Source: Ascidiella aspersa (Eukaryota). From it: a DNA stretch of 64,000 bases. Every line of letters starts with the position of its first letter. The stretch's first letter is position 1. A model generated the notes under the pieces. That model searched no databases. It had not been told where the DNA came from and worked only from the letters and a program-made list of their open reading frames with translations. The position numbers were made by a program, and so were the translations under genes. The stretch lies in the NCBI GenBank assembly GCA_963924565.1, contig OZ004615.1:15748001-15812000 (forward strand), given 5' to 3'. Shown in pieces: positions 12,795 to 61,874 of the stretch.

Positions 12795-13563
12795 ATGTCG
12801 ACCTGTTGTACCTCTGGTGTGGCACAGTATTACGTTTTAACAGCTGGCCTTCTTCTCAACACTTCAGCGTATGTTGGTAAGTAGTAACTAGGTTACACAT
12901 ATTTGCCAATGATAATAATTTTGCAATGTTTTTTTAGGAATTCTAGTTCTGCAAAGCAGCATCAACATTGTTGGAAATATTGGAACAACATGTGCCAGTA
13001 TTTTGTACTTGTGTGCTATATTTCTCTTGTTGACTGCAACTCCGGTTATGCTGCTCAGGATTGGGCCAAAGTGGTGCCTTATTGTAGGAGAAATTGGGTT
13101 CCTTTTCTATACTCTTGGAAATTTCTTTTCAAGTAAGCTGAACATGCCAAATGCAGACATGCCAACATACTTAGGCTACTACTCACATAGTATTATGTCA
13201 GCCTGTTCTACCATTGTGCGTTTCATATTTGGCACAGAAAATAACATTTCTTCACAGGTTACTACAGTATGATACCAGGCGCAGTGATTGGCTCTCTGGG
13301 CGAAGCTTTCGTGTGGTCTTCTGCCCCCCTTATTGTCACGCACTTAGTAAAAGAAACTTGGGAAAAAAGAGATAAAGACGACCAAACCTCGCAAAGCATT
13401 GATCACCTGAGGAATAAATGGTTCGGACACTTTTACGCCATACTAAAAGCCAGTCAGGTAGGCCGTAATATAATGCATTTACTATTCATACACATTAAGT
13501 TAAGGTTGTGGTCGTAAACGAGAATACTTCTACGTCTAACAAATCATCGTTATAATAGTATAA

Positions 13564-13596
<33 letters not shown>

Positions 13597-16500
13597 CTAG
13601 ACGAAATACCCGGCGTTGCCCAGGTGAAATAGAATATTTACCGGTTATTCGTAAGATCTTGGTAAAAGACATAAATAATGGAAACATGTTTTTTTAAATG
13701 TCATATCGGTTAACTATAGCGCACAACACTTGGCTAAGCATGCAATACATATTTTCAGTAACGAAAACCCGTTACGTTTGTCAATTGAGAATAACTCCCA
13801 AACGTAAAACTTTATGTTGCAGCAGCAATTGCTTAGACCTGCTTAATAGCGTTATATTTAAGCAAATACGTAATCCCGGTGCTAAACTGCGTCAAATGTC
13901 AAAAAAACCTCATTGAAAAAAAAAATGAAAAAAATGCTTACTTTTAACTACTGCAATAAACGCAATATTTCGCGAACTCTGATAAGTATTGCGTGGGTAA
14001 ACACATCGCAAGATGTCATTAGGCTTTGTCTTAGTTGGAAACTTTAAAATTTTACTTTTTTACTAAGGAAAATATACTTACTTTTATTGTTTTATTTCCC
14101 GGCAGGTAATTGCGCTTGGAAAAAAGTTTTGCGCGGATACGTTAAACTTGGACTATCTTTTACTTGAACTCTACCTAACACAAAAACTTCTCCTATATTA
14201 AATTTACTAACGCTGGGGCCTATGATACATGCTTAAACACAATCTTGGTAAGTGACAAAATCACATTGTAACATGTTGTAAACCGCATTGAGTGTGACGT
14301 AACATTTCCAGTGTGACGTAACATTGGGTGAACATCTTGCCACACACTTACATCTCACAAACTTTCTCTTTTATTATGTAGGCAAAAACTATATTAAAGC
14401 CGAAATATTTCTTGACATGCGATACGTTGAAGTAATAATTAGGCTACAGATAATATATATTGATAGTAACCATTTATTTTGTGGTTGATTGTCCAGATTA
14501 TCGGCAACATCTTATCGTATGTGGTGTTGTACGGCGGCCGACACTTGAATGTCAACACAACAAAACCAACCACAGACCTTTACAGCAACCTTTCGATGTG
14601 CGGCAGCCGCTACTGTTATGTAAGTGGGCCTACAAAGATCAGAGTAAGATTGACAGTGGAGAGGGTGTCTACGTAAACAAGGGCTTAATCATTTTTTCAC
14701 AAAGTAAGGCATGGGTGCAGATTTCAACTGAATTGAAAAACGATGTATAATTACCCTTCATTAAACGATCCCCATGGGTTTGACGGTAGGTTACTGAAGG
14801 TGCAATCCGATTCTAAATGCGGGGTTTTCTTTTTCGTTGCGATACTATTAAATCCTATAGAATGCTCAAATGGGTTGGTCCTTTGTTCTTATGCAAATGC
14901 AGCATAATAGTATAAAATTACTATATCATCATAAAAGAGCCAAAAAGGTCGAGTAGATCGACATCCTTTTATTATTTAAGACGTTTCGATACGAGCTTGC
15001 ATCATCCACATTAACTGAAGATGATACAAGCTCGCATCGAAACGTCTTATTGATTAAGATGATGTCGATCTACTCGACCTTTTTGGCTTTGCAATTTATT
15101 ACCAAGCTACATTACCGGTCCGTGCATAGTGTACCCAAGAACAAAAAAACATAGGAAAACGTTTACTTGTGTCCGCCAGGATTCACACCATCAAACTAGC
15201 GCTAAGAACAAATATGTGCCGCAAAGTCGCTGGTCGATTCTACTGCTGGTCGGCATCTACGCTCTCATGCAAGTCGCCAGTTTCGCCATCCACTCATTTT
15301 CTCTAAAGAAAATTGTCACCGACGACGATAACCCAGGTGATTATGCCACACGCCGTCCGTTAATAGCCATGCCTGAATTTACGTGTGGGTCGACCTCATT
15401 GTTTAGATCAGTGTTTCTTAATCAGGTGAATACATTTTTTGCAGGGGTGAACCAACCAAAAGGGGCGAATAAGGGTGAACTGTCAGAGATGGATGATAGC
15501 TTGCGAGCAGGGCGGATATTCCGGATGCTGTTATATATAGACGAGATAGTTTTATCGTATTATGAGACAAGGGTGAATGAAATCTGGAGATAGATGCTAT
15601 AGGGGTGAACAAAACTAAAAAAAGTTTAAGGAGCACTGGTTTTCATCTTGGTGAAGACAACACTAAAAGTTTTGGGAAAATTGTTTGCTAGCTCGTTTAA
15701 CTATCGGATCTGTGAAGTAACTGGGAAGCAAACGATAACTAAATCACAATGAAATATTGTGGTACATTGTGGCACAATAAGTATACATTTTTGTGATAAA
15801 CGTGAGCAAACCAAAAACGGCTATATTTGCAGAACGCCGACCGCTACATCTACTGATATCATCAATCAAGACGACTTTCCGCCATATTCTCTCTCTTGAC
15901 AACCTTCTATTAATGCCAGTGGGTTTCTACTACGGTGGAGTTGTGTCATACGCAGCTTCCAATTTTACTATGGCGTTTGTTTCCTGCACGACTGGAGTGC
16001 AGCAGGTACATTTTTGAAAACGTAAAGTATTGATTCAAAGCAGGGCTGCAGAGTCGGTTACAAATAACCCGAGTCCGAGTTCGGCCAAACAAATAAACCA
16101 GAGTCTGACTCCCGAGTCCCGAGTCCCGAGTCCGACTCCGCTCAAATGTGCGACTTCATCGAGCACCGAGTCCGGCCCAGACTATACAGCCTGCGTATTC
16201 CACCAATTTACGTAACTAAAGTGATGTGGATAGTCAGCAATCCAGTTATAGGGGTGTCGTATAATTCATTCACTCACAATACATGGTTGGAAAATATTCC
16301 ACCACATTATATTCATTTTGGGGGTATTGCGCATGCGCATGTCGGACTCAGGACTGGGGTAGTTTTCCGTGGTCTTACTCGAGTCCCGAGACCCGAGTCC
16401 GACTCTGACTCCGCATCCCTGATTCAAAGACATAAACTTTCAAATAAAAGTTGTAATTCGTTTTCTCAAAACTACCACGACATTCGCAAAACAGATCATT

Positions 16501-17983
16501 ATTTCAAATGTTATTACGTTCAAATCCTTACCCAAACTTCGCCCCTGTTACATGTGTTACTATGAGGGACACTACAAAAACGTTATAGTGCTGGACTTAT
16601 CTTTCTTCTTAGCCGTGTGTTATACCTAATGCCTGGAAAATATCTTGCTAGAGAAAAAAAAAAAAAAAAAAAAAAAACGTTAATTGGACATTCTCGTGTG
16701 ACCCGTAACGTACAGCGCTGATAGACTATAGCTACCAGCAAAACGTTTTGTAATACACTCCCCCAAGGTATAATAAGGTTGCACATCCTGTCAAATAAAC
16801 ATCTTCCAATCTTTCACCGAAAGTTACACAACAACAAATCGTTAATTAGCCCACAATACTGTTTTAGGGCACAACCGCTAGTCGTTAATTAACGAATGTT
16901 GTAATCTCGTATAGGGATGTACCTTCACGCAGTTCCTTCTGTAGACTATACTTGCAACAAAATTTAAGGAAGCATTACTTCAGAGATGTAATATTAATAT
17001 TGACTATATGGCTAAAGGGTGTTTGGTATTTGTGTCTCGGTTTTCTGCCGTGAAAATTATATTTATTAGCCTTCGATGTTACTTGAAATATTTGTCCCAA
17101 GATCGGATGTTTCACCAATCTTAAAGTAAGTAAAAGTAATTTATTTGTTGTATCACGATTCAAATAGCGTCACAAATCTTACACGTAGTTATAGGACTTC
17201 TCGGGAATGCTGTATTGGGGAAGTTAGGCAAGATTGATGTTTGAAAATCGTACATACAACTACATATTTTGTTGTTTACGCCCAAGGTTGGACTTGTAAT
17301 GTGCTTCTACGGCGTTTCAAACGTCTCGGCAGCCTTCGCCGTTGGTCGGTTGGCTCATCGCTTCGGGATTGTGCCAGTTGTGACAATTGGATTTGCCCTT
17401 GACTTGTCGGATTGGCTGACTCAGCTGTTTTGGATGCCCACCCTGGTATCCAGGTACTACTGGACTTACGTCATCGCAAGTATGCTAGGAGCATCGGACG
17501 GCATTTGGCAAACAACAGCGTCCGGTGAGTTTTTATTTTACTAAATTCAAAGTGAATAACCACCATGAAAATGTGATAGTGTGTAAAAAGAAAACAGTAA
17601 TAACTTGTATTTGAAATACACGTTAAGTAAATAGATGTGAATTGAGTAGAATATACAGGTTTAAATTACCACGTCCATCTATTACCCGTTACGTTTTTTA
17701 CATTCCCTAACTTTTGTGCGCAGCAATTACGGCACTCTTTTACGCCGACCGCGCTGAGACTGCCTTTGCGTCACTCAGCCTCTATACAGTGCTTGGCCTT
17801 TTCTTCGGGTTTTTCCTCAGCGGCAGGATCTGCGTTCGGACGCAGATCTTCCTGATGATCGGCAACCTCGCGCTGGTCGCAATTGGATATGCTGTAGCCG
17901 AAGCTCGCAGAAGGAGAAGAAAGTCTTCTGATGCCGAGAAACAAAAATTGATGCCAAACAATCAGGAAAAAGATGCGAACTGA
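12795..17983 (+). CDS. UNC-93-like MFS membrane protein, paralog B (8 coding exons, 475 aa)
   Basis: Exons 12795-12876, 12938-13132, 13258-13457, 14497-14619, 15180-15336, 15833-16005, 17287-17524, 17724-17983. Exon sizes and phases match paralog A except exon 5 (+3 nt) and a longer C-terminus; 1428 nt open frame. Confidence 0.9.
13596..14381. mobile_element. Helentron/DINE-1-like non-autonomous element in intron 3 of paralog B
   Basis: Begins ACTAG...acccggcgttgcccagg after a (TA)n tract and ends acaaactttctcttttattatgtag, resembling HINE/DINE-1 termini. Absent from the short homologous intron of paralog A. Confidence 0.5.
14939..15139. repeat. Fold-back repeat containing a minimal hammerhead (Penelope pLTR-like family)
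   Basis: 14939-15006 is an imperfect reverse complement of ~15020-15088; the same family occurs at 35886-36078. Confidence 0.75.
15012..15049 (+). ncRNA. Minimal type I hammerhead ribozyme motif
   Basis: taa-CTGAAGA-t-GAT(acaagctcgc)ATC-GAAA-cg-TC-tta: conserved core, stem II GAT/ATC, palindromic ACGT stem III, GUC cleavage triplet, short stem I. Confidence 0.7.
16041..16421. mobile_element. hAT MITE (GAGTCC-rich family)
   Basis: TIRs CAGGGCTGCAGAGTC...GACTCCGCATCCCTG; perfect 8-bp TSD ATTCAAAG; internal ccgagt/gactc subterminal repeats. Confidence 0.9.
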
Positions 17984-20692
17984 TTGTTTTGTGGAATTGG
18001 TAACAAATTATGTTTGAGCAACACAAAAACGTTTTTGTTTTAAATGGCATGATATAGTCATGATTCGTTGTCTCATGTTGCATTAAGTGAAGGTGTTAAA
18101 ACATTCTGACCGTTTGGATGATTAAAGTGCTAATTCTGTATTACAAGCCTGTCACACATTGTTTAACTAAGCGTTCAAAGAGCTAATTAGCATGCTGCCC
18201 ATGAAACTTGTCTTGAACGGAAAATCGGGTTCTAAAGCATTACAGGAAAATCTTTCTGCAATTACATTGTAATGACACGAAAAGGGAACACACACTTTAC
18301 GAACTATAAAAAGTAACAATTTCTCTGGCGGAACTATTTGTAGTGTCATAGTATTGAAAGTAGATTATGAAGCCAAATTAGCTTAAATATGTACGACGTA
18401 ACGATTAAAAATTGTCTAAATATGTTATAAATTTATAGGAATATCAAAGTAGGCCTAAATACTGCTATAAATAGGCGCCGCTGTTTTGACGGCGGACTGT
18501 TTGCTCTTGTTTGGGTTAGAAATAATGGGTGGGGTTAGTGTTGAAATTATACGGGAAGTAAGTGTTTTTTATTTCTAGATGTTGTTGTTATTATGTGGCC
18601 CGAAAAAAAATTTTTTTTTGGACACATGTTGTTTTTGTCCGAATTATTTTTTATTTTTTATTTTTTTTTTATTTTTTATTTTTTCAGTAAATTTTTTATG
18701 GCTCACTTTTGACAAGGAAAAAAACATAGTTGGAACATGAAATTTTCATAACTGTTAAATAACCTCCCAAAGTTGTTTTTAATATAAAAAAAAATTGCCT
18801 AGGTTCTAAGGGGTGGTTTTTAGGGGGGTAAAACTGTCATTTTTTGTTAATTTTGGTTTTCGGCACTTTTCAGAGATGAAAAAATGTAAAAAAAATCTGA
18901 TATATTTATGGATGATGGATACATGACATATACAATGCTAAGTAACAAAATGTTAAACATTAGACCTGAACTGTTTATCCGGGGGGTCAAAATGCACAAC
19001 ACTTTAGGAAATTTCACTGATATATTTACACTAGAAGGAAATGACATAAAAATCTGAAAATTTCACAAATGTTAGAGAACCATTTAAAGCTGATGTTAAA
19101 ATAAACATTTTACCTCTTGAAAATAGGGGAGTATTTTAGGGGGGCAAAATTAAAATTCGGCCATTTTTGTGTTTAGAGGTGTCTAAAAAACTAAAGAAAA
19201 CATTGTTAAATAGTTTTCAATTATAAAGACAAATTATAGGTTGCTTCACAGCAAAAATATAGAAATTAAAGTGATTTTTTGATGGAAAAAAAATTGCAAA
19301 CAAAGTGGTGTACACTGCCTGGCAGATTTTTTATTTAGACTTGCGGCGGTAAAATATGTTGTTTTGTAAGAGCAATAAGTTAATTCACTAAGACGAGACA
19401 CTTTGCACAATGGATGTTGCACGTGCTGGACAAAAAAAGCACAGCAAGGAGCCAGCCGCTTCGCGGCCAGAATAAGGCAAGCGATATGAACAAATTCTGT
19501 ATTGAAGGTTTTCTGCCGCTAGATTAGAGTAGATAGCTGTAAAGAACTAAATCGAACACATCACACTATTGATTTTTGTCCCCAATTAGAGGCGTATAGG
19601 GGTGCAAGAAAAAATTGTCAAATATTTTTCAATTACAAAGACAAGTTATAGGTTTGCTTCGCAGCCAAATTTATATTAAGACCACTGGCAATCAATCTTG
19701 TAAAAGTGCACCATGTCCAACCTATAACACGCAACTTCGGGCCACATCCGCTTTTGCCTGCTAAAGCACCGAAACTGGAAGCACAACATTGGGAGTATTT
19801 GGACACTGACAAATAAGACCCGTTGAAAAAATATAGAATAACCAAGGAATAACACCCTGGTAAAGTATAGTGGAACTGCGCTATACCCCCCCTGGTATAA
19901 TATAGTAGAACCGCGCTATAACCCCCTAGCAAAATATACAAAAACCGCACACCCTGTCTAGTTCTAAATTCGTTTTTTGTGCTGAGTCCCATATAAGAAT
20001 TATATTTTGGAGGTAAAATGTTATTAAAACGTTCAGTCGATTTCACAAAATTACGTCGTAAAGAAAAACTAAATACTTTAATTTATTACAACAAGAATTT
20101 GTTAAAAAAAACAGCGCAAAAATATAGTGCAACTGCAAGCAAATGATAAACTCAAAGTGGGTTTAAATAAATTCGTTTTCTTGCCCAATCATAGCGACGA
20201 AATGAGGAGGAGCAGGGTCAGTCCGAGGGAAATTTGCAGCCCAAAGGTTTAGTGCTTACCGTTGTACTTCCTATAATAAAAGGTATGCCAAAGTATTTCT
20301 GAAAAACGCATTGTTTATACCGGTTAGACGTAATTGCGTCATGTCTATCAAAGATCAACAAGACTTTGAAACTGGGCAGCCCAATTAAAATTACAATTCT
20401 TATTCCCATTTAGCTTGGGTTCGATTGTCCTTTTTGCTAACTCTAGAATAAACGCAACTTTTTCTATATTTCCTGTCAACGCCACAGGTTGGACCTAACA
20501 AAATGTTAACCTAAAATACAATATTTTTAAAAGCTCAAAATAATTATATATTTGCAAAGAAGAAAGAAGTGGTGTATTATACTCAATATTCAACTGAATA
20601 ATTTTTCGCAATTTCTCCAGGAGTAGCAAAAAAGGTTTAAAAATTGGCACTCTTCATTTTCAAATGACTTGAATTGACTTGAGCCTTTTGAC

Positions 20693-20731
20693 AAAAAAAA
20701 AAAAAAGAAAAAAAAGAAAAAAAAAAAAAAG

Positions 20732-20758
<27 letters not shown>
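20693..20758. repeat. Poly(A)-rich low-complexity tract
   Basis: About 65 nt of A interrupted by a few G. Confidence 0.9.
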
Positions 20759-20762
<4 letters not shown>

Positions 20763-21674
20763 ATGGGACTTTTGTTTACAATACTGCTTATAAGAGAAAT
20801 TCCTGCTTTAGAACTACGTTATAAAAGACTTCCCGCTTTAAAAAACATTAAAAGACTAAAATTAACTAGGATTTACGATACTTCGTTATGACATTCCAAC
20901 ATCATCGCGTAAACAAAGCTGTAGTACCATAACAAATAGCAAATTACTAAAACAATATAGTCGATTAAGATTCAGTCATAAGGACGACGATAGATGTGAA
21001 AGTGTATAATATGGAACGAATGGACTTATTCACAAGATCACTACCGGTAGTCGTTTAGTCAGCTTTTTGTTTGGCTGGATATTAAGCTGTTTATAGACTT
21101 GCGCGGTCTGTTCGCAGACTTTTCCAATGCTCAAAGAAAGTTTAACAATGGGCATGAATATGCTCCGCTGCGTGTTGATACGTCACGTTAAATTCTAATT
21201 TTTGCATGGCTTTGTTTGCGATTTAACTTCTGAATATACTTCAAATTTTGTTAAAATAGACTCGTTTTCAATATTTCCGTATTCCTAATGTCAGACAAAA
21301 GGAGTTCTTTTTTATATTGCGGGTGCCTTCGGAAAGACTACTGTCGCACTCAGATGACCTATCAGATTGTGGTGCAAGTAAGCCAGGCTAAAATTACGAT
21401 CTGTTCTGGCCTTTTCGAGGCGGCCGCTCTTACAGTTGGTCGAGAAATGACTATAGGTCTGCTGCAACTGGATCAATCGGTAAAGCCACTTGCCCTTTGC
21501 TTGCACCAGAGTCCTGTATTGGCCAAATGATTTAATTAGCGGACTTTACGAGGGCACCTGGTAGATTATTGTGAGTATGCCCTAATTATTGTTTAGTAGT
21601 TCTGCAGCAGGGATAGATCATAGTATATGCTCATGTAGATTGCTCACTAGTGTTATCAATTAAGAGTTCAGCTC

Positions 21675-22517
21675 CTAACCCAAAAGAGGAACATCGTCGG
21701 AACCGTCAACATGAAGGGATGAAGAATTCGACTGTTCTTCGGGCGGCGTTTCGATTAAATGTTTTGCTTGCCCGGCAAGTTTGTACAGACGATCCAACAG
21801 TTCTCTGTCGTTCATAGAAAGACAAACCTTACAAAGGAGCAGCGTTCGCGTCGCGCATAAAACTAACACGAACCCCATGGTAATGTTAATGTAGCTGATA
21901 ATTCCGAGTCGCTCGCTATTTTGCAAAACGCAGTCGAAAGTAACATCTTTGAATGCTGTACAAGTGAACACTCCTTCCGTTTCTTCTTCCTTGTGGTTAT
22001 TGACAAACGTTATCATCGTAGCACAGTAAGAAATGCTCGCTATTAAACAGATAATGCTCCTGATGCGATAGGTTCTAACAAATACATGCGATTTTTCCAT
22101 TTCGCCCAGAATCCCTTGCTTCTTTCTTTTGTTCGTGTTATTCGAATCCTTTACCCACTTGTAACTGCGCGCGGCGTTGACCACATGCGGAAAGAACTCC
22201 AAATAGCAGTTGTAAAGGTACATCAGTACGGCATATACCACATTAAGCCACCAAAAGTTTCGAAAATAGTTGAGAGACGGTTGCATGAAACAAACTTGGT
22301 TTACGTACTCCAAGTGGTAGTCCTTGAAACGGGAAATTGTTGAGTTTTCAAATTCTGACTCCACACAAACAAACGAGTCGTCGTCCGAGTGGGTAAAGAA
22401 GTACAGAGATGTGGCGATCAAAATCAGATTGCACGAAAACGAAACTTTTTCCCACCATGGCTTCAAATCGTTCTCTTTAAACAAATCCGATGAAGGCAGA
22501 ATGTGTTCCAAAGACAT
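21675..22517 (-). CDS. LRRC8/pannexin-like 4-TM large-pore channel domain protein lacking LRRs (intronless CDS, 280 aa)
   Basis: LKPWWE (cf. LRRC8 LKPWWD) before TM1. YVNQVCF...YFRNFWWLNVVYAVLMY...FFP matches LRRC8 YVDAVCY...FAKYFPYLVLLHTLIF...KFP. MEKSHVFVRTYRIRSII matches VEEGDIVYRLYMRQTII. Two Cys in each extracellular loop; four hydrophobic segments. Confidence 0.8.
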   Translation of the reverse strand: MSLEHILPSSDLFKENDLKPWWEKVSFSCNLILIATSLYFFTHSDDDSFVCVESEFENSTISRFKDYHLEYVNQVCFMQPSLNYFRNFWWLNVVYAVLMYLYNCYLEFFPHVVNAARSYKWVKDSNNTNKRKKQGILGEMEKSHVFVRTYRIRSIICLIASISYCATMITFVNNHKEEETEGVFTCTAFKDVTFDCVLQNSERLGIISYINITMGFVLVLCATRTLLLCKVCLSMNDRELLDRLYKLAGQAKHLIETPPEEQSNSSSLHVDGSDDVPLLG

Positions 22518-25500
22518 GTTAACAGTAATGCTTAAGATTTCACCCAGAAAAAACCTTTGTTCTACAAAAACACAACCTTTAGATTTGTTAATCTATCTTT
22601 GTGTGGCAAGAGTTGAAGTTGCGTTTAACATCCAAGCCTTTGGTCAAGGGTACAGCTGGTTTACTTATCTGTCAAACATCATGGAAAAAAGCACTGTAAT
22701 CCTAATTCCTCTAAATCTGAGTGGTGACGTCTTTTGCCTGGAAATGGATTATTTATGTAAATGACACTAAATTAAATCAAAATTTAGGAAACATACACTT
22801 CGAATCGAAAGTGTGTGGAATTAGATATATTTTTTTATAATTCCGTTTTGACCAACAAACAAAATGTTACTTAAAATAATTTTCTCAGCTCAAAAATCAT
22901 TGTTCATTTATTAACAATACCTTTAAAAATTGCAAACAATTTTAATAATTCTTTATAAAAGTTTTATTTTAGGAAAATTTTCATTTTGCAAATCAATTAA
23001 TCAATAAAAAAATATGCGTAATTCAGTATAAACTAATTAGTTTCATACGTATAAAACTATACTAAAAGACCTCGTCTACGTGTATATTCCAAAAAAACAT
23101 GATTAACAAGTTATTTTTGCGAGACTTAGCCACCACTTGTACAAATTTAGTTGTGAAGAAATTTGTACACTTTTATGAAGATATTTAGAGCAAATATAGA
23201 ACGAACATTAAAGTTATAGCAACGTCAATAAGGGTGTATGCCAGAATATAGACGGACGGTCTTCGCAGAAATACTCTCCGCTAAGTTTGGTGCAGTAACT
23301 TGTTATGTTTTGTCAAATAGATTAAAATCAACCAAGGTAAATGTGTCGCGGCTTCTACGCTAACTTTAACTGTACACATACCTTATTACACGTTTGCGTT
23401 AGGTTAACATTGTTTACTGACAAACATAGGGTTCTCGTCTCCGGACCACCTGACTACCGGCTGTGTTGGAACCAATTAAAAAAAAAGTAATTTAAATTCG
23501 CACCTATATATTCGTTTTTCAGCCCAAATATCGTTTATTGAAGCATAACGTCCATTTAAAGGCTACTTCATATTATACCGCTACCGATACTTTTCACAAC
23601 TTACTCTAACTTGTTTTTATGGTCTCATACACATACCAAGGTAAAATTTGTTACTAAAACGCCTTCAGGCAATTGAGAAAAAACAACGATGTGCGACAAA
23701 GGCGTCATACCAAACTTTACAGATTATATTGGTTCAATATATAGATCTTGTATAAACCTTTTCGTGAGTCGACATTGGCTTCGCTTGTCTATAGAGAAAA
23801 AACGATTACTGATGAGTAAACAACAAGACGTCACTTTCGCGTGATACTATTTCAGCCGTCACGAGGCTATGCGATGTAATTTGTCAATAACACGTTGGTA
23901 TTCGTTAAACGCTAGATAAATCTTATTCATGAAGTTTAACCAACTTTTATTTCTCGTACGCTTTTTTTGTAATATATGCATTGTGTTGGATTATAACGTG
24001 GTCAGCTGGTTATGTTTTGTCATCTCACAAGCTTACCTTAACCAAACTTCTGAAGCTACCCTTAACCAAACTTTCTGACTATTTATGCCGACGCATATAA
24101 TTATAAACGTTCACTTTGTTTCAGGAAACATTTGCAGTTCCAACTATCACGTTGAGGGTTTCAACGGTCATATTTCCGTAGTCTCTGTTTTCTGCTGTGT
24201 GGGGTATCTGTTATCTCGAATATATTGTATAATCAATAATTCTTAACTGTAGCAGGCACTTCTGATAAACTCAGCTGTATATCAAACTAGATCTGTACGC
24301 TTAGTTGCCTGTAGCGTTTGTATTTAAACTTACTTATAGAAGAACGCGTTAGTTAGTACGATTAAGACTTTGATGAATGGTTGCTTGATTGGAAATGCTT
24401 ATCTCAAGTTACAAAACTCTCGTAGGCAGAGCAGAGCTACTACGACTGTTGACTGGTCACCGTACCGCGACGCGTGCAGTCGACTGTAACGTTCTCCTTT
24501 TTTCACTTTATTTTATAGGCGCGGAAATAGAAACCTAGAAACCTGATTAATTTATTGCCCTAAGTAAACAAACAAACATTTTAGGTGTTCTGCAACGACT
24601 CCAGCCATAAGACCTAGATCAGAACAACATCAACGTCGGAATAAAACACAGTTCGGTATTAGACCAAAATAGGACTATTAATATCTAAAGGTCGTAGGAC
24701 TGTCTAAATCGCAATAAGTCCTAAATCCGTCGGAATAAGACCTAAATGGTCAGAATCAGGCCTAAGCGATACTTTCTACCCAAAACTCTACCCCTAAAGA
24801 CATCACTAACTCCCCTAAAAATTTTAACACTAACCCATTTTCTAACCCAAACCTTACCCACTAATAACCACAACTAGGGCCAAAAATGAGCTATATATCA
24901 ACATGGCAAATAGAAGCTGCACAAGATGTTAATAACTTCCTTTTAGATAATATTAGGTGCTGGTATTAACACCTGTCCTAGTCATTCAGATTTTACACCC
25001 AAAATAAAAATAAGAGTTGAAAGCTTTTCGAATTGCTAAGCATTAGCTTATAAACTTGCAAAAGCAAGGTCCGAAACATTGGGAAAAATACAGGAAGGTC
25101 TTAAAAAATCCTTATACAATAGGTCTGTTATTAATTTCATGTTTACAAGTGATGGTAAACTAGATTATGTTTACCCAAATGTTAATTCTCAACTATTTCT
25201 TCCCAGTTTGGGCGTAAAGTTACTATATATATGAGTGTGAATGTATGGGTTCGCTTTTTCTTTTTACCTTTTTCTACAGAGAAACCCTCAAAAAGCCAAA
25301 TAGGCATTTATAGGTCTGAGAACAATAGGCCTATATAGGTCTGAGAAGGAAATAGCATACCTCAATTCAGGGATTCTCCAGCATTTTTAAGCTGCGCACA
25401 GTTTCAAATTAACTGCATGTATGGAGTACCGGTATCCCTTGAAAACAATTAAAGTTTTAGGCTGATTAGAGCCTGTGTGCCGACTGTTCCTAAATAATCC

Positions 25501-34200: not shown

Positions 34201-36872
34201 ATAGTACAACAAGAAACAAAAAACGAAATAAGAGGCAAAACCCATAGACTCTTTTATAACAGTTTCATTACATCCAGTATACACTTTTTTGTTGGAAGTC
34301 TGAATAATTGTTAAAAACACACAAAAAAAAACGTTCTTTCAACACTAATTGTGTACGTGTGATCAATTTAAATTATAGACGTGACCAATGCGACAAACGG
34401 ACTATAACAAAATGTAAACTTCCCCAACTGGTTTGTAACAACCTTTCTACGAACAAATTGCCCACATCCGCAAGTTAATTTCTCTAGGCCACTGCTGAGT
34501 CACATGTAAAGGTGACTCAAAGCTAGGTATGTGACAGCAGGAAGTGGAACAGTGTGAAAACGTTCGCAGTTCGTGACAACGTTATAATTGGTGCCTGTCA
34601 ACGCACTGCCAGTACAAAAGAACCAAGAAAATGACTTGACACCCGTACGCTTAGGTTACATATAGGCGAATAAAAACATCCCTACATATTTTTTAGGTTT
34701 TTTGTTTTATGTCTAGTATAACATTAACTTATCCCTTTGAAAAAGTTAAAAATTATATACAGCTTCAATGAAAAACGTCTGCTATGGGTTTTAAGATATA
34801 GTTAAATATGCCAAAAAGAACTAAAATGTATGGGTGAACATTTTGTTCGTAAATACTAAAAAACAGGCCGGCCGGCGGCCAGTAACACTGCAAACAATAT
34901 TTTTGTCAAGATTTACATTTGTCTCGTTTCTGCTTTATGATCTACGCGCGATAAAGTCGATGTTGGGCTTAAGTTTGCCATCAAAGCGCCTTCAGCTCAA
35001 TCAAATTGACGCACCCTAGTATGACAGCAACAAGCAAGGCTGCTAAGCTGGTTAAAATGCCCCGAGTCCGACACCGAGTCTCTAGTCCGACTCCAATTCT
35101 TCAGCCTGTATTTCACCCATTTACTTAAATAAAATAAATTGAAAAATCAGCAACCCACTCATATGGGTGTCATAGAATTCATCCACCCACTTTACATGAT
35201 TAAAAAAGATTCTATATATACTATTCCACCTTTACAATTTACTGTTGGCGGCCATATCAGATTCAAAATTTGCTACTGCACATGCGCACGTCGGATTCTG
35301 CACTCAGAGAGTTTTACGTGGTCTTCTTACCCGAGTCCCGATTAATTAACCAACTCTGCGGAGTCCGGATTCCGACTTCGGCTCCACAGCCCTGATGAAC
35401 ATAACCTGTGATTACTTGCGCACGAATTGTGGCTTCGTTATACATTTGGCACAATTTATTTGCCATTGTAGTTGTAAAGTTTTAAAAACATTTGCGTCGC
35501 GCAGTTACGAGCCAACAATCGAGGAGATCCACAAGAAGACGGTGTCGGTTGACGGGGAGCAGTTTCTGCTTGAGCTGGTCGACACCGCCGGCATGGACCA
35601 GTTCACGCAAATGCGTGAGATGTACATCCGCAACGGCGACGGATTCATTCTGGTCTACTCCATCCTGGACCCGACCACCTTCGAGGACGTCAAGTCGATC
35701 CGCGAGCAAATCGTCAGGAGCAAATACACGTGAGACAAACAGGGCTGCGCGTTGTGTCTGACTCCCGATGACAGGCGTGTAAGGCCACTATAAGGCCTGC
35801 TAGCACGCCGGCAATTGTGGGACACTGATACCGAGTGACAATGCAAAACGTTTAGCATTCCATATATTATATATAGATATATATACTTGGGCACACTATA
35901 CACGGATCTGTAATGTAGCTTGATAATAAATTGCAAAGCCAAAAAGGTCAAGTAGATCGACATCATCTTGATTATGTTGTCTTGTCATCATCTTTGATTA
36001 TGAACACATTAACTGAAGATGATATAAGCTCGTATTGATATTGATCTACTCGACCTTTTTGGCTTTGCAATTTATTATTAACCTATATATATATAAATTT
36101 GCTAATTAAATAGTCAGTTTGATATTCGACATGCACAAGCTGTTCTGTGTCACCCTGAACGGCGTCTATTAAACCAAATCGCTAAAAGAGCTTCGGCTAT
36201 TGGTAACATCTATTTTAATACTGTATTGTATTGCCTGTGTAAAATCGCGCTAAGTTCAACTTTTTTACTTGAATTCTTGTTTATAAACAACAAAAAAGTT
36301 ATATCATTACTGTACTTTTTTTGCGTCGATGGAAAAAATGTGAGATAGTTTTCTTTTAAGCATTCTGTCGAACTTACTCAGGGCAATAAAAAATATTTTG
36401 TTGGTGTAAAAAACATTTCCAGCCTTAGTTGGTTGACTTTGCCTTAGGACAATACCTCTTGCATCTGAGGTGGCCTATGCATGTTACACTTGAGTGTGTA
36501 AAATTGTTAAACCTTGAAATAATATTAAAATACCTAATCAATAATCAATTAAATTGTACGACGAAAAGGTAAAGCGTGTAAGTGTGTAATTGCAGCGAAC
36601 AAGTTCCAATCGTTCTTGTGGGAAACAAGCGAGATCTCGCCGAAGCGGAACGACAAGTAGACGAAGACCTGGCATCACAGTGCGCCGCCAAGTGGCCACA
36701 TTGTCGCTTTATAGAAACATCTGCCCGGGACCATTGTGAAGTCGAGGACGTTTTTCTCCACGTTTTAAAGGAGATAAGAAGCTTCGAAAACACTCGGAAA
36801 AATAGGGTGACTGCCCTCCACAAAGAGGCCTCCACGAGGCGAAAATCGAATGGAAGATGTAGCGTCATGTAA
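31215..36872 (+). CDS. Ras-family small GTPase, Rap-like (3 coding exons)
   Basis: Exons 31215-31306, 35505-35729, 36596-36872 with phase-2 introns. [17 protein letters not shown] (G1), YEPTIEE (G2), DTAG (G3), NKRD (G4), ETSAR (G5), CAAX CSVM. MR.YK start and [16 protein letters not shown] are Rap-like. Confidence 0.9.
31386..31719. mobile_element. hAT MITE (CAGGGGTTCTTAAAC family), degraded
   Basis: Termini caggggttcttaaac...gtttaagaaccctg; similar along its length to 32871-33184. Confidence 0.75.
32871..33184. mobile_element. hAT MITE (CAGGGGTTCTTAAAC family)
   Basis: Perfect 16-bp TIRs CAGGGGTTCTTAAACT/AGTTTAAGAACCCCTG; TSD ttctagta/ttctatta. Confidence 0.9.
35060..35393. mobile_element. 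hAT MITE, GAGTCC-rich family (partial)
   Basis: Similar to 16041-16421 and 45607-45988; right end ...ctccacagccctg. Confidence 0.75.
35886..36078. repeat. Second copy of the hammerhead-family fold-back repeat (ribozyme core broken)
   Basis: 35886-35972 is the reverse complement of ~15055-15139. 36005-36078 is a forward copy with CTGAAGATGAT but no GAAA. Confidence 0.75.
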
Positions 36873-41997: not shown

Positions 41998-44900
41998 ATG
42001 AGTGGCAAGATGCTTCATTCACAAAGTTGCCTGGTTTTTGCCCTGATGCTGTCATCTCTTGCTGGATGTACTTTTTGTGAGTAAAACGATTAAACTTTGA
42101 AGCACAATAACATTGTCTACTAAGTGAAAAAAAATTAGAGATAACAATGTAAATAACCATCTTTAAAGATGAAACTAAATCTTTCTGTAGAGTATAAATT
42201 GGTATACAAAATATATATTTTTGCAGTAGCTTCAGCTGAGCACCTTAGAAAGAGCAAAAGTCTGTCATGGAGCAAGTGGACGCGCTGTAGTGTGACATGC
42301 GGCGAGGGTAAGCAGTCACGTGTTAGAATGACGTCACCAAGAGTGGAAACAAGACCTTGTTACAAGAAGTTTTGTCCAAGTAATTATATTTTTAATTTTT
42401 CAACTTACGTAAATGCTCAAGGTAAAATTGTTTGTTATTATTTACAGTTCACTTACAGGATAACGGGGCCTTAATAAGAAAATAATTTAAAATTTAGGAG
42501 CAGAGTTGTAAGACTTACGACAAATATTTTTCTGTAAGTACCCTGCCAAGGTACTCCCGGTGTAATATTATGAGGGTGCCATTATCGCTGGTCAGTAAAA
42601 ATCACAAAATATAACCATTTGTACAATCAAGTGATTCTTAAGATTGCGGCGCCCTAAAAATATCATGGCACAATTTCTACCACTATATGCCAATTTGAGC
42701 CCAACATAAGTGAACAATCGTACTTATAGTTCTATTATACTCTGCAAAGAATGTGTAAATAACATAATAATATCAGTTATGTAATCGATAGGCGTATTCA
42801 AATATGCCATGTATGTCGACTTGGATATTTGTAATACTTAAAGGATATTTTACTAACTTAAAAATGCGCGGCAAAAAGCTATCGTGAGTAACTTGGTGTG
42901 CCGCAACATACAATTTCCGAACCACTGTTATGCACAAAGGTTGAACCAAAACGTACACTGATTTATTTATCTGTGTGTTTTTACCTGTCATCATGTGTGT
43001 GTTTTTTTCTCGTGTTTTCTCGCGTCGTTAACAAACGCTGCCAACTATCCCAGGTTACCTTTCGTGGCCGCGACTCCACTTCAGTGGCAAGTTTGTGGCG
43101 GATGTAAGCACCCTGAACAACATAGCGTGCAACTACGACAACAGGCATTTTACCAGCACCGCAATATCACGTTACAACCAGCGGCAACTTTCAAAAGTTA
43201 GATTTTGATTTTAAACTAGTACTTTACGAACTTCACTATACTCACGTACCATTTATTGAGTTGTCATATCATCAGCGTTTCTAACATTTCAGAACCTGTT
43301 AATAAACATTAAAGGGAAAAACTGTTTAACGAATACAATTTAATGAGATTTAAATACAACTTTTATTAAGTTTTTTACTAAATAAATAAAAGACGTAAAA
43401 TGCATAAGGTTTCCTTTCTTCGACCAGTTGGTGGAAGTGAGAAATAACTTTTCTCACTGCACATCAAGGTGATATACATGAACATCATTACGGAAACCGA
43501 CTCTTACAATATAGAGAGTATATGAAACACATCATCGCACCTTCAAATGTGGAAAGAAAATTGCACAAAAACTCTAACATGTTGGAATTAGAAAAATGAA
43601 ACTTTCACAAGCTGCATAATTAAAACCAGAACCACGCGAATTTCACCTCTTACGAAAACCAGCAAGACAACTGGAATGCGATGGGCAGCGGTCACTTCTA
43701 CTTCGTTGGAACTCGCATCACTTCAATTTGCACAAGCCCCAACAGTTGCAGCACAAAGGCACCTATAACCAAAAGTGTTCTGCGAGGTAAAAACAACTTT
43801 TTGAAAATTGCGACTGAGTCGTGGGCTGCAAAAGCATTATGTAGTTGCGCTCTCATGTTAAGCCTGACGGAAACTATGTTACGCAATTAAGTAACCCTAA
43901 TCTTATTGGTCACATGTTATTGAACTTTGAATCGATTATGTATAAACTGCCATGATAAGTTTGAGAAGTGTCTTTACATGGTCTATGTTTTGTTGAAGGA
44001 TTATGAGATGGATTGATACATAGTCTACTATTTTTATTTCTTTGCTCATTGGAAAAGTTTACCGCTTTACGATCTTATTTTTGCAGAGGCTGAAAGGGCC
44101 CAGATGGTTACCCCTCACCCATATGAGCAGATCGCTTGCGAGGTTTGGGGACTAACCATACAGATCCCGGGGGTGTTGGAAGGACGGTATAAACCGGCCT
44201 GCAATCAGGTGGAAGGAAGTAGGTGCAAGCGGGTGGTTGATAAATTCACCAAAGGATACTCGTTTTGCAACCTGGCGCGTTTTAAAAGGTAAGAATGATT
44301 ATTACATTAAGCATGCGTAGAGCATTACCCTAAACACCCTGGGCGGTATAAAGCGCGGTTTTTGATACTTTTATCTTGCGCTGCCCTTTTTATATATATT
44401 ATCTGTCAAATTATTAAAAAAATGTTGCGTGGACGGTTAAAACGTTCTTACAGACCCGCTGGGGTGCGCATAAACCACTTCTTAAGCAATGGAGTTACAC
44501 ACTAGCGTAACAGGTTGTTTCAGCAATAACAAGATCAAGTAAAATTCACAGTGTCATATGGTTCAAATAACATTTGAAAAAACAGTTAACAAACCTTTAA
44601 AAATAAAATGAAATTAGTAAACGCAATCACTAACACTATGATTAACAGAATCGTTACTATTGTTTTAAGTTCTCCAAAACATTTGTCTGCATGTTTATTT
44701 TTTTCATTTTTGTGTTGTTTTGGAACACATCCAGCCTAATAAAATTATTGTGTAGATTCACTTCCACCGTCAGTGCTACTAAATCAGTTGAAAAATTCCC
44801 TTTCAATGCTAGAATTTTTTTTTTAATATGGCTGTACGTAAATATAGAACTTATTCCAATAAACACATATGTTTAAGATGAATTTTTTGGCAACAATTGC

Positions 44901-50900: not shown

Positions 50901-53900
50901 GAAATATAATTACCAAGGGAGCTGTTTTTGAACAATATAAAGTCTGGTAGCAACAGTATTATTTCAAACTCCAATCGATAGAAATTGTGTATAATGTATA
51001 GTAATTCAACTTTTGGTAGTTATTCTAAAGTATTTGTGAAACGAAATTCTGACAGCCATGTGAACAAATACTGTGGTGAAGTCGCAAATGTATTTATTTT
51101 TTTATTTCTTACAACGACTACTGTCCTGTTAGATACATGCCAGCCACGAGGGACTTGTCCCTTAGTAAGCAGAAGCTCATTTGGAATTGGATGCAATGCG
51201 GAATGCAGTTTGACACACGAAATAAAACACGCGGTTTGTACATCAAAAATAGTTCTAGCAACATAAATATACCTAATGATATTTAATTCCACGTTCGAAG
51301 TTTAAATTTATAGTTCATTTTAATACCAATACTTATTAATTATCCTAATATCCTATACAATTTTCTGCCTAAATAAAGTGGGTTTAAATCAAAACAAAAA
51401 ATTTAGTACTGGTTTAATTTTAGTGTTTATATGATATGACAGTGTTTCCCAAGTTATGAGTCTCTGCTTATTCTTTTGGTTCTCTTGTCAAAATACAAAA
51501 AAAACCTTAAAGTTTATTATAGACAAAGTTAAAAACAAATGATGAATATTAAGAAAGTGGTGAACGTCACGCTTGACATAGAGTTGTTACCTTATATTTG
51601 CAATTTGTCAACAAACATATTCCAATAAGTTGGATTCAACACGTGTAAGTTGCGGGGTGATTTTATATACACAATACACCAACAAAGACTGTAGGTGGTA
51701 CGACTCGTACCCTACAAAAATGCTTTGTTTTAAGTTTTTCAAACAGAAATAACCTATTTTATAGGATATTAACCTATTCTTCCTATAAACAGAATATTAG
51801 TTTACCCAGTTGTTATACATATAGTTAAAATTACCGAACTGAATGTGACTTGGTTACCTACTTTACACAACGTATATCAGTTTACCACATATAAGGTATT
51901 TTACGTCTAATAAACTGAAGTCACTTTTTCCCGCTTTAGCTTTTCGTAAAGCCTAGGACTAGAACTATCTGGAGTCTCGTAAATAATGAGTATCATCTTT
52001 GTATCAGCGTGAAAAATGATGTGGACAGGTTGTGTGCAGTAATATTTTCTTTTGTAGTATATGTTTTTCGTTTTGTATTTCGTCTATAATAGTGATTCGT
52101 CTGCAGCTCAGTTTTACCGCTTTTTTATTAAATATCTTGCTACATAACCCTTTCTCAATTAACACCTCTTAAACTACCAAGTTTAACAGGATAAATGCAT
52201 AATATGACTTTTGAGCTTGGCGAAAAATTATACGTTTTATTTGTAAAAGCATGCAGCTTTGGGAGCTAGCAGCTAGTTTGCTAAAACACCTCGATGTTTT
52301 GACGTAGGCCACGTCTCCTTTAATTAAAAAGTTTGCCAAGTTAAACTACGTTAATTTCGGACGTCATCTTGAAACAACTTTAAATCCCAAAAAACAAATT
52401 CCTGAATTTCCTCTTTATTAGATGAGGCCTGGGTTGCCAGATTTGCATTGTTTGAAACTTTCGAAATTTTTCGGAACAAAGAAAAATATTGGCAACCACT
52501 GGGGGAGTGGTATTTTACTCAACCCAACCTTTACCCTGCTAAAGTGCTTTCATAGATGCATAGCATTCTCATAACCGAATATAATGCAAACATGTGATTC
52601 AGAAATAGTATAACACATAACAGATTGCTCCAAATTTTGCTTCATTAAATTTTGTTTAAAATGTCGAAATCGGATTGAAAGCCATATTTAAAAAAATTGA
52701 TATAAACTGTAATAGTATTTCGTAAGCAGTAAAACGACCATTAATCGTTTTGTTTCAAACCCGTCAGGAGAATGCAGCACCGATACCGTCAAGGAAGGCA
52801 TAGTTGAATTGAAGGCCCTTATCCAAAAAATCGTCATGCTTGAACTTGCAACCATCCCCCCTTACTTCACGGCGTGGCTGAGTCTCAAGACGGAAGCCGC
52901 AAGAAACTATGAAATTGCGCGACGACTCAAGTCAATCTTTAGTGAAGAAATGCTACATATGTCCCTGGCGGCCAATATGCTGAATGCGGTGTGCATACGG
53001 GCTTAAAGTTATACATTTTTTCGTACCTATAACATTCCAATTTTGGAATGCATTCACAAGAGTTTTACTTTAAACGTTTATCATTTCGGATGACGTTTCT
53101 AATTTAATTTAAAATCATATAAAGATCGAGGCTCAAAACAGATACTTTTAAAAAAGGTTTATCCACAATCCGATGATATTTGGAGCTAACCATAAAAACA
53201 TTCAAGCTAACAACTAAATGTAATTTACATAATTTAGTTCTATGGTACTTCTCAAAATAATAAAACTAATGCCCAATATGATTTATTGAAAACACACATT
53301 GCGTTTTACAATACGTCAGCACTTTGTAGTATTGCTTTTAGGTTCGTAAGCGTAATTTGATTGCATTTAACTCGAACCTTTACCAAAGTGACAGCCGAAA
53401 TTAAATCCGGTTGTAACGTTCGTATAGATTGGAGGAACCGTAAACCTTACAAACATCAACGAACTGCCTTCCTATCCAACTCCGATTGGAAGTGGTTCTT
53501 TTTACGACATTTCAGCCAACATTCTACTTCCGTTGGAGCGCTTCTCCATTCCACTTGTCCGGGATGTATTTTCGAACGTCGAGATGCCAGCGTCAAAGGA
53601 AGATAGAAAGGTTTGGAGTAATTACATAATTATTTGTAGGGATTAGGCAATCATTGGTTGTGAAGAGTTGTACAGATGTTAGCTGCATTTCGTTGCCATT
53701 CTACAGAGTATCGGGTCGTAATGTTTTAAACCTCCCTAAGCAATAATGCTGTAATGGTCTGTCAATGCGTTTAAAGTTAAAGGTTTATTTATTGACTCAG
53801 ACCGATCAGGCTTATTTTCCAATGCAGGAACTGCTGCGAGCAGCGCAACTCTGGAAGATTCTCTTTCAGTTTACGGACGAGAAACCTACGAATAAAATGG

Positions 53901-54832
53901 CCCTGCTCTTGGAGGAACTTGCCGAAAGTGATGAAATAGACGAAGACCCGCTTCAACTAGAAGCAAAACCCTATGATTCGTTGGAAGAACTCGAAACAAG
54001 GAGCTGGTTGGCGATATACGAATACGCAAGAAAGCGATTGGATGCGCATAGAAGCTCGTTGGCCGGCACTATCGGGGGCTTGTATGGCAAATTGTTGATG
54101 CATATCATACTACTTGAATCTTGTGCAAAGCTGTACGGTTTCGACGACGGAAGGTCGAATACCAACACTATCTTCGTCGGCAACTTCTCCAAACAACTGA
54201 ATATAACCTCTTGGTACGACCCTTCCCAGAAATTCGCCCTGAACGAAACCATTGCATCGATGCAGGTATCGGATTGCAGTATGTGTGATAATTGTATTAT
54301 GTCGTCAAAAGCAAATTGCATACGCTTGTTTAAAATGAAGTTTTGCCTCACTGAAATAATTTGTCAACCCAGCTGGTCACTGTTAGTTGGCATTTAATAG
54401 CGCCTAAATTTAGATTAACAGCAAAGTAAAGGAAACATTATAATTAGATGGTACTCCACAACACCAGTATTATAGTAAATGATCAAACTGCCATGACTGT
54501 CAAATCTGTTGTAGACTGTTTTATCATTTAAACGGTGCTAATTTGAACCATACCTCGCATAGAAGTTTGTTCTATAAAATTATAAGTAATATTACAATCG
54601 ACAAAATAGACTCATATCCTACTCCATCATCCTTCGTCATTCGTTATATGCTACTTTTTCAAGGAACAAATGAGACAGGAAGAGCTTGAGATAACACAAT
54701 CGCAATCCAGTTTCGTGATCAAGAATCCTATTCCTCCAGCTTACTCGAAAGATTCCAACCTGTCGATGCCCTTGTTCCCGATCTTCGATTTACGTACGGC
54801 AATTCAAGCGGTCGTTGAAATTGTCTATCAAG
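41998..54832 (+). CDS. Secreted TSP1 + VioB/RebD/StaD-like (ferritin-like C-domain) fusion protein; at least 17 exons, >1008 aa, 3' incomplete
   Basis: Exons 41998-42076, 42227-42379, 43054-43196, 43663-43786, 44087-44288, 44957-45090, 46172-46370, 46669-46905, 47342-47539, 48450-48608, 49188-49333, 49663-49801, 51133-51233, 52768-52988, 53428-53610, 53828-54265, 54664-54832. All GT-AG, phases compatible, 3025 nt with no stop. Motifs in order: signal peptide; WSKWTRCSVTCGEG; SYLSWPRLHFSGKFVADVSTLNN; WNAMGSGHF; EVWGL; SGTIG; DPG...IDGQVY; QYYNLYPVM; YMPATRDLS; LELATIPPY; EEMLHMSLAANMLNAIGG; TIGGLY; AVVEIVYQG. Confidence 0.88.
42227..42379 (+). other. Thrombospondin type-1 repeat exon (phase 1-1)
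   Basis: WSKWTRCSVTCGEGKQSRVR...ETRPCYKKFCP: WxxW, CSVTCG and RxR motifs; a 4-Cys short variant. Confidence 0.9.
45607..45988. mobile_element. hAT MITE, GAGTCC-rich family
   Basis: CAGGGCTGCGGAGTCGG...CTGACTCCGCAG; collinear with 16041-16421. Confidence 0.85.
49825..50720. mobile_element. hAT MITE carrying a nested Harbinger MITE
   Basis: TIRs CAGTGGTTCTTAACC/GGTTAAGAACCCCTG; TSD ctataaaa/ctacaaaa. Confidence 0.85.
49954..50269. mobile_element. PIF/Harbinger-type MITE
   Basis: Long perfect TIRs AGGCCCGTTTACACTACAGCTGCACTGAGC; 3-bp TAA TSD on both sides. Confidence 0.88.
52768..54832 (+). other. Ferritin-like (PF12902/VioB C-terminal type) domain exons
   Basis: ELKALIQKIVMLELATIPPYFTAWLSL...EEMLHMSLAANMLNAIGG...PSYP...LERFSIPLVRDVFSNVEMP...TIGGLY...IFVG...LFPIFDLRTAIQAVVEIVYQG follows the family consensus as I recall it. 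Confidence 0.88.
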
Positions 54833-55151
54833 GTATGCAGTTAAAACAAACAGTTGAGTGATTCACAGCGTCGCAATCTATATTCGCCTCAGCGGTTACG
54901 CGCGCTCAACCACAGCCAGGCACTAAAGAAATTATGAACCATATATTGTATTGTCGGCCGATTTAGGATGTTGTTTACAATGTATTAGGGAAAAAAGTCT
55001 TGGTGCAAGTAAATTTTTTAAACGTTATATACAGAGTAAAATACAAACAACTGAATAAACGTAAAGCGTAACCTCAGTATGCAACACATTTTGATGGACG
55101 TTTCAGGCCTTATAAAGCGACGAACATAAAGCACTCTACCGCTATTGTTTT

Positions 55152-55351
55152 NNNNNNNNNNNNNNNNNNNNNNNNNNNNNNNNNNNNNNNNNNNNNNNNN
55201 NNNNNNNNNNNNNNNNNNNNNNNNNNNNNNNNNNNNNNNNNNNNNNNNNNNNNNNNNNNNNNNNNNNNNNNNNNNNNNNNNNNNNNNNNNNNNNNNNNNN
55301 NNNNNNNNNNNNNNNNNNNNNNNNNNNNNNNNNNNNNNNNNNNNNNNNNNN
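55152..55351. other. Assembly gap (200 N)
   Basis: Run of 200 N; the true size is unknown. Confidence 1.
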
Positions 55352-61471: not shown

Positions 61472-61874
61472 ATGAAACTTGGATTACCTTTCATTGCGTT
61501 ACTTGGAATTCTTATGCTGATGCCGTTTCTTGTGGTAGTCTTTACAAAATTCTCTCCGTATAACAACTTACGTCAGATCAAATCACAAAAACATCAAACT
61601 ATTATGGCACGAAATAACATCAACAGAAACAACCAAAATAAAACTTCCCTTGGAAGTATTTCTGAAGTAAAGACTACGGAATTTTATCCAAATAAGGAAG
61701 AAAATAAACAACCGAGAGCAAACTCAGGCATTCAGTTAAATAAAACCGATGCTGTAAAAGATGACGTTGGTGGGAAAGAGCGTTCGGTTAAGGACGACAA
61801 GGACTTCATGAAAATTATGAAAGAAAGAATGACGAATAGGAGAAAAATGGTGAAAGCTGCTTGTCAACGCTTGG
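61472..61874 (+). CDS. First coding exon of a type II membrane (Golgi-type) protein, possibly carbohydrate sulfotransferase-like; further exons not identified in the window
   Basis: aaaATG start, N-terminal TM anchor, polar stem, then ERMTNRRKMVKAACQRL (R..R...+..C, as precedes the CHST8-14-type catalytic domain); G|GTGAG donor at 61875. Confidence 0.55.

Follow-up and report, generated by a model that had tools for sequence, protein, structure and literature searches.

A short LRRC8-type pore gene without leucine-rich repeats in the tunicate Ascidiella aspersa

The vertebrate LRRC8 proteins (LRRC8A–E) of VRAC join a four-helix membrane pore to 15–17 leucine-rich repeats (LRRs). Reviews present LRRC8 genes as a vertebrate innovation or as the outcome of a fusion of a pannexin with LRRs when chordates arose, and they treat the LRR domain as essential for activation (PMC6363415, PMC12182595); copies in Nematostella are ascribed in reviews to transfer. 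Truncated forms have been described as well. LRRC8C cut at position 400 assembles into heptamers and, together with LRRC8A, produces basal current; a cut at 379 yields no protein, and a cut at 419 yields low current (PMC11729881). Loss of the LRRs from LRRC8A, as in the ebouriffe mouse, nearly abolishes current (PMC6363415). Within the pore, F143 of LRRC8D is the equivalent of R103 of LRRC8A, neutralisation of R103 raises sodium permeability, and the intracellular loop between TM2 and TM3 of LRRC8A comprises 114 aa, residues 145–258 (PMC9399500). Pannexins and innexins have four TM helices in a large-pore fold and carry two cysteines in each extracellular loop, features that they have in common with the gene described here.

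This gene lies in a 64,000-nucleotide stretch of Ascidiella aspersa DNA, called the window below (Table 1). Translation of positions 22517–21675 on the minus strand gives 280 aa from an ATG start, followed by a stop, and the ORF is enclosed in a stop-free frame of 305 codons, against a maximum of 213 in 60 simulated 64-kb windows. A first-pass annotation, made from the sequence alone, had read it as an intronless LRRC8-like channel gene without LRRs, and the translation, the structural model and the cysteine conservation agree that an ORF with LRRC8-like features is real. The four transmembrane segments that it had proposed appear as four long helices in the model (21–43, 80–108, 145–179 and 201–230), three of which are found by hydropathy alone, and the 2 + 2 extracellular cysteines (C51/C76 and C186/C196) are invariant in 18/18 paralogues and present in 86–87 of the 87 rows of the tree described below. 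The intracellular loop is indeed short, at ~40 aa against 114 aa in LRRC8A and 63–82 aa in the paralogues outside group A, which consists of the window gene plus the two paralogues closest to it, and the stop, placed at ~50 aa past TM4, falls 50 aa beyond the TM4 helix. The signature segments LKPWW (18–22) and YVNQVC (71–76) were found as described; a third motif is likewise present, with an F–Y spacing of three residues, not two. The coding region is intronless in that it forms a single coding exon, without the splice donor seen in the group-B paralogues discussed below. Hexamers resembling poly(A) signals occur at 21536 and 20087, within the putative 3′ UTR.

Table 1. Features of the channel gene and its putative untranslated parts (positions are those of the window).
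Feature	Positions	Strand	Basis
CDS, single exon, 280 aa, LRRC8-type pore without LRRs (P0001)	21675..22517	-	translation, profile, model, fold
LKPWW motif, aa 18–22, start of TM1	22452..22466	-	profile search: LRRC8 chains match, pannexin chains do not
TM1 helix, aa 21–43	22389..22457	-	model and hydropathy
Extracellular loop 1 (EL1), aa 44–79: C51, N58 sequon (NST), D66, C76	22281..22388	-	
TM2 helix, aa 80–108	22194..22280	-	clear in model, weak by hydropathy
Short intracellular loop, ~40 aa	22074..22193	-	
TM3 core, aa 154–172; invariant R153 just before	22002..22058	-	alignment, model
Extracellular loop 2 (EL2): beta hairpin, C186, C196	21918..22001	-	alignment, model
TM4 helix, aa 201–230	21828..21917	-	model
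Single cytosolic helix past TM4, aa 237–254; without splice donor (13 group-B paralogues have one)	21756..21809	-	
Acidic tail, low confidence, aa 255–280, and stop codon	21675..21755	-	
Putative unspliced 3′ UTR	19934..21674	-	colinear 2734-base X3 contig
Putative 5′ untranslated part	22518..22713	-	X3 contig start at 22713

The homology of the window gene to LRRC8 is visible only through the family profile and the fold, because the single protein does not match PF12534. Searched by itself, the protein matched no Pfam family (PF12534 and PF00029 included), no PDB sequence in a single-sequence search, and nothing in word-indexed homologue searches, a method of low sensitivity. The PF12534 match, whose absence the first-pass annotation had named as a refutation, is missing for the single protein, and the LRRC8-type pore domain shows in the family profile and the fold. 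Profile A1, made from 18 family members of the same genome (18 matches from 20 candidates in the own-genome search), returned LRRC8 in all of its 23 best PDB rows (E 5.7e-11 to 9.3e-8), followed by the first pannexin-1 at 2.4e-7; the PWW region was covered by the LRRC8 matches only and omitted from the pannexin matches. With this region removed, LRRC8D still came first in the search with a nine-member paralogue profile, narrowly (0.0038 vs 0.038). PF12534 is matched by 9 of the 18 members (best E 0.0011) and the Innexin profile PF00876 by 0 of the 18 paralogues at E up to 1; run against the genome itself, the Innexin profile gave no candidates, and its control was likewise without a match. Connexins occur in craniates and tunicates, the tunicate ones being multi-exon (PMC6391747, bioRxiv 10.64898/2026.06.13.731801); neither the window protein nor its paralogues match PF00029, and they have two, not three, cysteines per extracellular loop.

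The four-helix LRRC8/pannexin fold is shown by the AlphaFold model of the window protein (pLDDT 77.9). Foldseek returned LRRC8 structures for all of the matches listed (best E 2.5e-7; 6G8Z included), and VIA-align placed LRRC8A first (Z 18.2, rmsd 4.6, 247 aligned), ahead of Panx1 (Z 15.9, rmsd 3.5, 227 aligned), Cx50 (Z 12.4) and INX-6 (Z 12.2). Profile A1, both structure comparisons and the LRR scan reported below bear out an LRRC8-type pore domain without LRRs. The gene has in common with vertebrate LRRC8A–E the PWW motif before TM1, the four TM helices, the 2 + 2 extracellular cysteines, the EL2 hairpin and the post-TM4 helix, and these proteins are its best profile and fold match; it differs from them in its missing LRR domain, in the length of its loop, in an Asp in place of Arg103, in an identity of ~15%, and in its position outside the vertebrate LRRC8 clade, to which a long-branch caveat applies. 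Like the LRRC8A pore domain of 6G8Z and LRRC8C cut at 400, the engineered or patient forms without LRRs, it consists of the pore domain alone, but it is natural and family-conserved, with a shorter loop and a shorter ordered C-terminal part. Pannexins (Panx1–3 and the tunicate pannexin of PMC8769644) resemble it in fold, in the absence of LRRs and in an EL1 sequon, and are set apart by matches that skip the PWW region and by the single one of 102 homologues that matches PF00876.

The absence of LRRs, also proposed at first pass, is confirmed by the stop at aa 280 and by an LRR profile that is silent across the window with working controls. This profile, built from LRR genes of the same genome, recovered two unrelated LRR genes as a control at E 1e-25 or better and found nothing at E < 0.75 over the 64 kb. 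Scanning of 364 kb (the window and the paralogue neighbourhoods) and of 40 kb around a member on contig C6, 404 kb in total, revealed no LRR exon linked to any paralogue, and only two independent LRR genes with signal peptides. These two, which lie beside the C3 cluster of paralogues, were rejected as split LRRC8 halves in view of the signal peptides and of the Ig-like and TM segments into which the minus-strand gene runs; weak LRR-like matches downstream of the LRRC8-like gene on C1 were dismissed as bounded by stops. In 13/13 group-B paralogues, a phase-2 GT donor lies directly past the post-TM4 helix, and an independent search found a homologous second exon downstream in 12 of the 13. This exon is helical, not LRR, and encodes a conserved domain of ~100 aa (L024:1545-2063 and homologues), whose model is poor (pLDDT 52) and for which nothing significant was found in PDB sequences, Pfam or Foldseek. 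A motif resembling it was observed within the single ORFs of P0003 and P0004, and derivation of the window gene's last helix from the exon found no support (hhalign probability 2.5%). Neither the window gene nor its two nearest paralogues, both on C7, have the donor, and all three end in short tails.

The gene had been presented as a single oddity, a view that must be given up: the genome holds at least 20 LRR-less genes of this type, the window gene included, and LRR-less homologues occur in several invertebrate phyla. The members comprise the 18 matches, the C6 gene and the C1 gene, none of which was found to carry LRRs, and their number is a lower bound, as an intron-rich canonical LRRC8 could escape the genome search. 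The window gene is among the smallest; the members of group A have its short architecture in common at 33–35% identity, and a single exon encodes the pore domain in each of the 18 paralogues. Searching for the pattern KPWW[DE] yielded 23 matches (control 11), namely 12 known members, one new member and 10 attributed to chance; these 10 of the 11 extra matches were therefore not accepted as members. The new member, on C6, is 376 aa long (E 4e-6, a partly circular value). The C1 gene (L041/L042, 21.647–21.657 Mb) has six exons, is LRRC8-like with a weak PF12534 match, and has a tentative 421-aa model that likewise lacks LRRs. An N-glycosylation sequon is found in EL1 or EL2 of 16/18 paralogues, that of the window gene being NST at 58–60 (occupancy predicted), and the position of D66 is occupied in 17 paralogues by D, N, A, T, S, C or K, never by R. 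Seven paralogues of two interleaved types form a tandem cluster on C3 (30.575–30.629 Mb, L023–L028), and head-to-head pairs were also observed on C2 and C4. Elsewhere in the genome, the connexin profile gave 45 matches, a large share of which are short and incomplete, as split genes would produce, and a GH6 match above the cut-off was seen; GH6 is part of the tunicate cellulose synthase. Together, the connexins and GH6 point to a tunicate.

Among 1.84 billion representatives, the family profile found 102 homologues, of which 65 match PF12534, one matches Innexin and 10 carry LRRs. LRRs occur in none of the 37 best, and 24 of the 73 full-length rows lack LRRs and continue for over 150 aa beyond the pore; some short records may be fragments or first exons. 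Nine of the 30 clusters consulted are named, the LRR-less ones coming from Styela clava, Branchiostoma, Xenia, Acropora, Dendronephthya and Lingula, and the others being one Innexin-matching protein of Branchiostoma and two fish LRRC8. The Lingula record joins the pore to 19 fn3 domains; the same pore with other tails was observed in P0058, P0068 and P0073 (this fn3 array, a tail that is fn3-like by eye in Branchiostoma, and a weak OTU-like one). P0094 is a further LRR-bearing homologue, and the nearest Atlas clusters of one homologue are pannexin or PF12534 clusters. Read by eye, the supplement of PMC8769644 files anthozoan PWW-type proteins as innexins and includes an LRR-like tail in Nematostella A7SYJ2 and none in Exaiptasia XP_020900435.1. 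The PWW motif is absent from its chordate innexin/pannexin files, so the window gene is not the known tunicate pannexin. Two anthozoan proteins filed there as innexins, Cn_Edi_02 and Cn_Ate_02, are LRRC8-type with two tandem pore domains and no visible LRRs, and may be fused gene models. Some LRR-less records are already labelled LRRC8-like by database pipelines: those of Branchiostoma (CAH1243439.1), Xenia (XP_046862461.1), Styela (XP_039258524.1) and Exaiptasia have, like the window gene, an LRRC8-type pore without LRRs, but at 367–811 aa they have longer loops or tails, the 280-aa window protein being the minimal form. In our literature search, which covered listings and the openings of abstracts, no paper dealt with LRRC8-like proteins of invertebrates that lack LRRs, although Abascal and Zardoya (2012) may already mention such forms.

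In a tree of 87 rows (14 from the own genome and 73 of the 102 homologues, 29 partial matches having been dropped), all own rows and Styela, the one named tunicate there, fall in a 51-row clade (SH-aLRT 97), whereas a separate 14-row clade (SH-aLRT 99) holds all seven LRR-bearing rows together with LRR-less anthozoan and Lingula proteins. This split is retained in subsets of 37 and 26 rows, and a single clade of the tunicate family and vertebrate LRRC8 is rejected by the AU test (p 0.0138 under LG+G4, p 0.0008 under a C20 mixture), for a group that was named after the first tree. The branches are long, the outgroup is a single sequence, the root is weak and the basal fork open; the homologues were chosen by the tunicate family's own profile, and no LRR-bearing sequence of amphioxus or Nematostella is known to be among the rows. 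The C1 model is placed in the clade that contains the vertebrate sequences (81/91), and the AU test does not reject a grouping of this model with vertebrate LRRC8 (p 0.2), which makes the C1 gene a better candidate for an LRRC8 orthologue than the window gene. Since it has no LRRs and falls outside a clade with vertebrate LRRC8, the window gene is a member of the LRRC8/pannexin large-pore superfamily by its predicted way of working, not of LRRC8 proper.

Expression of the window gene is suggested by run X3, whose kind is not on record: one contig of 2734 bases, at depth 19, runs colinearly through the stop between 22713 and 19934, with a depth of 0–4 on its unique flanks, and thus resembles an unspliced transcript; runs X1 and X2 cover all 30 bins. 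In the RNA run X4 (6% read), a few reads in minus-strand orientation fall on both flanks, and depth is zero over 21214–22417. Against its two closest paralogues, the window gene has dN/dS values of 0.50 and 0.38 at a dS of 1.3–1.8, near saturation. Values of 0.26–0.42 were obtained for five recent C3 pairs, a sixth recent pair gave 1.54 on 6 changes, and another was without synonymous change; among group A, conservation is highest at second codon positions (0.62 vs 0.43 at third).

Several other features were observed in the window. An UNC-93-like multi-exon gene (12900–18000, plus strand; weak PF05978) is convergent with the channel gene, and deeper, divergent contigs over its exons suggest further copies elsewhere. 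Between the two genes lies a high-copy repeat insertion (18590–19962), which is polymorphic, since one X2 contig joins 18590 to 19962. Ferritin-like exons at 52716–54397 (plus strand) match PF12902 (E 1.9e-14), a VioB-like family found mainly in bacteria and fungi, and a horizontal transfer into the tunicate is possible. The plus strand further carries a Ras/Rap-like GTPase in two exons (35350–36872), a thrombospondin type-1 exon (42157–42474) and a Penelope-like retroelement with RVT_1 and GIY-YIG (55116–57540; N run near 55150–55350), and a minus-strand frame (61454–61888) resembles by eye a Golgi type II enzyme in its N-terminal anchor and stem, with no Pfam match at E 0.1.

The first-pass annotation had left a truncated LRRC8, a retroposed copy and a pre-fusion-like lineage side by side. 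Of the three, an early branch without LRRs agrees best with the results, which speak against simple truncation of an LRRC8 orthologue; retroposition is not required, and pre-fusion status is not proven, because cnidarians also have LRR-bearing forms and the root is weak. On balance, we favour, by a modest degree of belief, a branch of the LRRC8-type pore family that is old, is free of LRRs and forms a channel not gated like VRAC; this branch would have expanded in tunicates, its LRR-free state probably being older than vertebrate LRRC8. A less likely course is that an LRR-bearing LRRC8 ancestor lost its repeats early and then expanded in tunicates as a channel still, with fast evolution moving the family away from vertebrate LRRC8 in trees. 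Long branches throughout the trees and LRR-bearing forms outside chordates (Nematostella A7SYJ2, and also P0094) are consistent with such a loss, the Nematostella form implying that the LRR-free state need not be ancestral, and the LRR-less tentative model of the C1 gene, near LRRC8, makes LRR loss in tunicates plausible. The AU rejections speak against it, and the LRR-less forms of cnidarians, a brachiopod, amphioxus and tunicates would require several independent losses.

The remaining explanations concern what the window protein does, if anything. It is improbable that it acts as a non-conducting or accessory subunit tuning heteromers of the longer paralogues, or in a membrane role other than a channel: it has one of the shortest loops, ends near the cut that destabilises LRRC8C and is without the additional helical domain apparently contributed by a second exon in 13 paralogues, and vertebrate LRRC8B–E do depend on LRRC8A (PMC9399500), yet the entire pore fold is retained and the three group-A genes keep their short architecture at 33–35% identity under protein-level constraint. 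Very little weight falls on a retroposed or decaying copy without function, which would account for the single coding exon, for a contig other than C7 and for the missing X4 reads on the ORF; the frame is intact at such divergence with second codon positions the most conserved, a single-exon pore domain is the rule in all 18 paralogues, the nearby A-tract (20686–20769) lies on the strand opposite to the one expected of a retrocopy tail, and no remnant of a sense-strand poly(A) was observed. Hardest to credit is that the ORF forms the first exon of a complete LRRC8 gene and is spliced to distant LRR exons. The donors just past the equivalent helix in 13/13 group-B paralogues mean that open frames of the tunicate family can be first exons, but the window gene has no donor there, the group-B second exon is helical, the window contains no LRR, the X3 contig passes unspliced through the stop and the convergent UNC-93-like gene ends 3.7 kb downstream.

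Under the favoured reading of an old LRR-free branch, the protein is predicted to be a non-junctional large-pore membrane channel with gating unlike that of VRAC. It may assemble as a ring of six or seven subunits, alone or with its two closest paralogues, as isolated LRRC8 pore domains do. Glycosylation of the EL1 sequon at N58 would block gap-junction docking, as in pannexins, and by this analogy the sequon suggests a non-docking channel (PMC8769644). LRRC8D F143 aligns ten residues ahead of the second EL1 cysteine, and the residue of the window gene at this position, aligned to LRRC8A R103, is D66; because neutralisation of R103 raises sodium permeability, weaker anion selectivity is predicted, and replacement of Arg103 by Asp66 would remove the anion filter and let cations and small metabolites pass. 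Swelling-type gating would be lost without the LRRs and most of the intracellular loop, and opening may instead be set by the N-terminal coil, lipids, voltage or the short acidic tail. The LRRC8C and LRRC8A truncations indicate that an LRR-free pore can fold and conduct, yet activity of the window protein is not guaranteed; motif alignment appears to place its end, with only one ordered helix after TM4, near the LRRC8C 379 cut.

A wider scenario, which we put forward tentatively and with somewhat less than even confidence, is that the LRRC8-type pore was a module of the cnidarian–bilaterian ancestor, originally LRR-free, which different lineages later joined to LRRs, fibronectin-III arrays or other tails, vertebrates keeping the LRR fusion only and tunicates multiplying the pre-fusion branch. 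If this is true, the window protein would represent a minimal LRRC8-type channel of natural origin, able to open in the absence of LRRs, and a missing link between pannexins and VRAC. Widespread natural LRR-free pores of this type would revise the history of LRRC8 given in the reviews cited above. The family would supply reagents for studying pore action without LRRs and selectivity with filter residues other than Arg103, and would bear on the release of osmolytes or ATP in invertebrate chordates.
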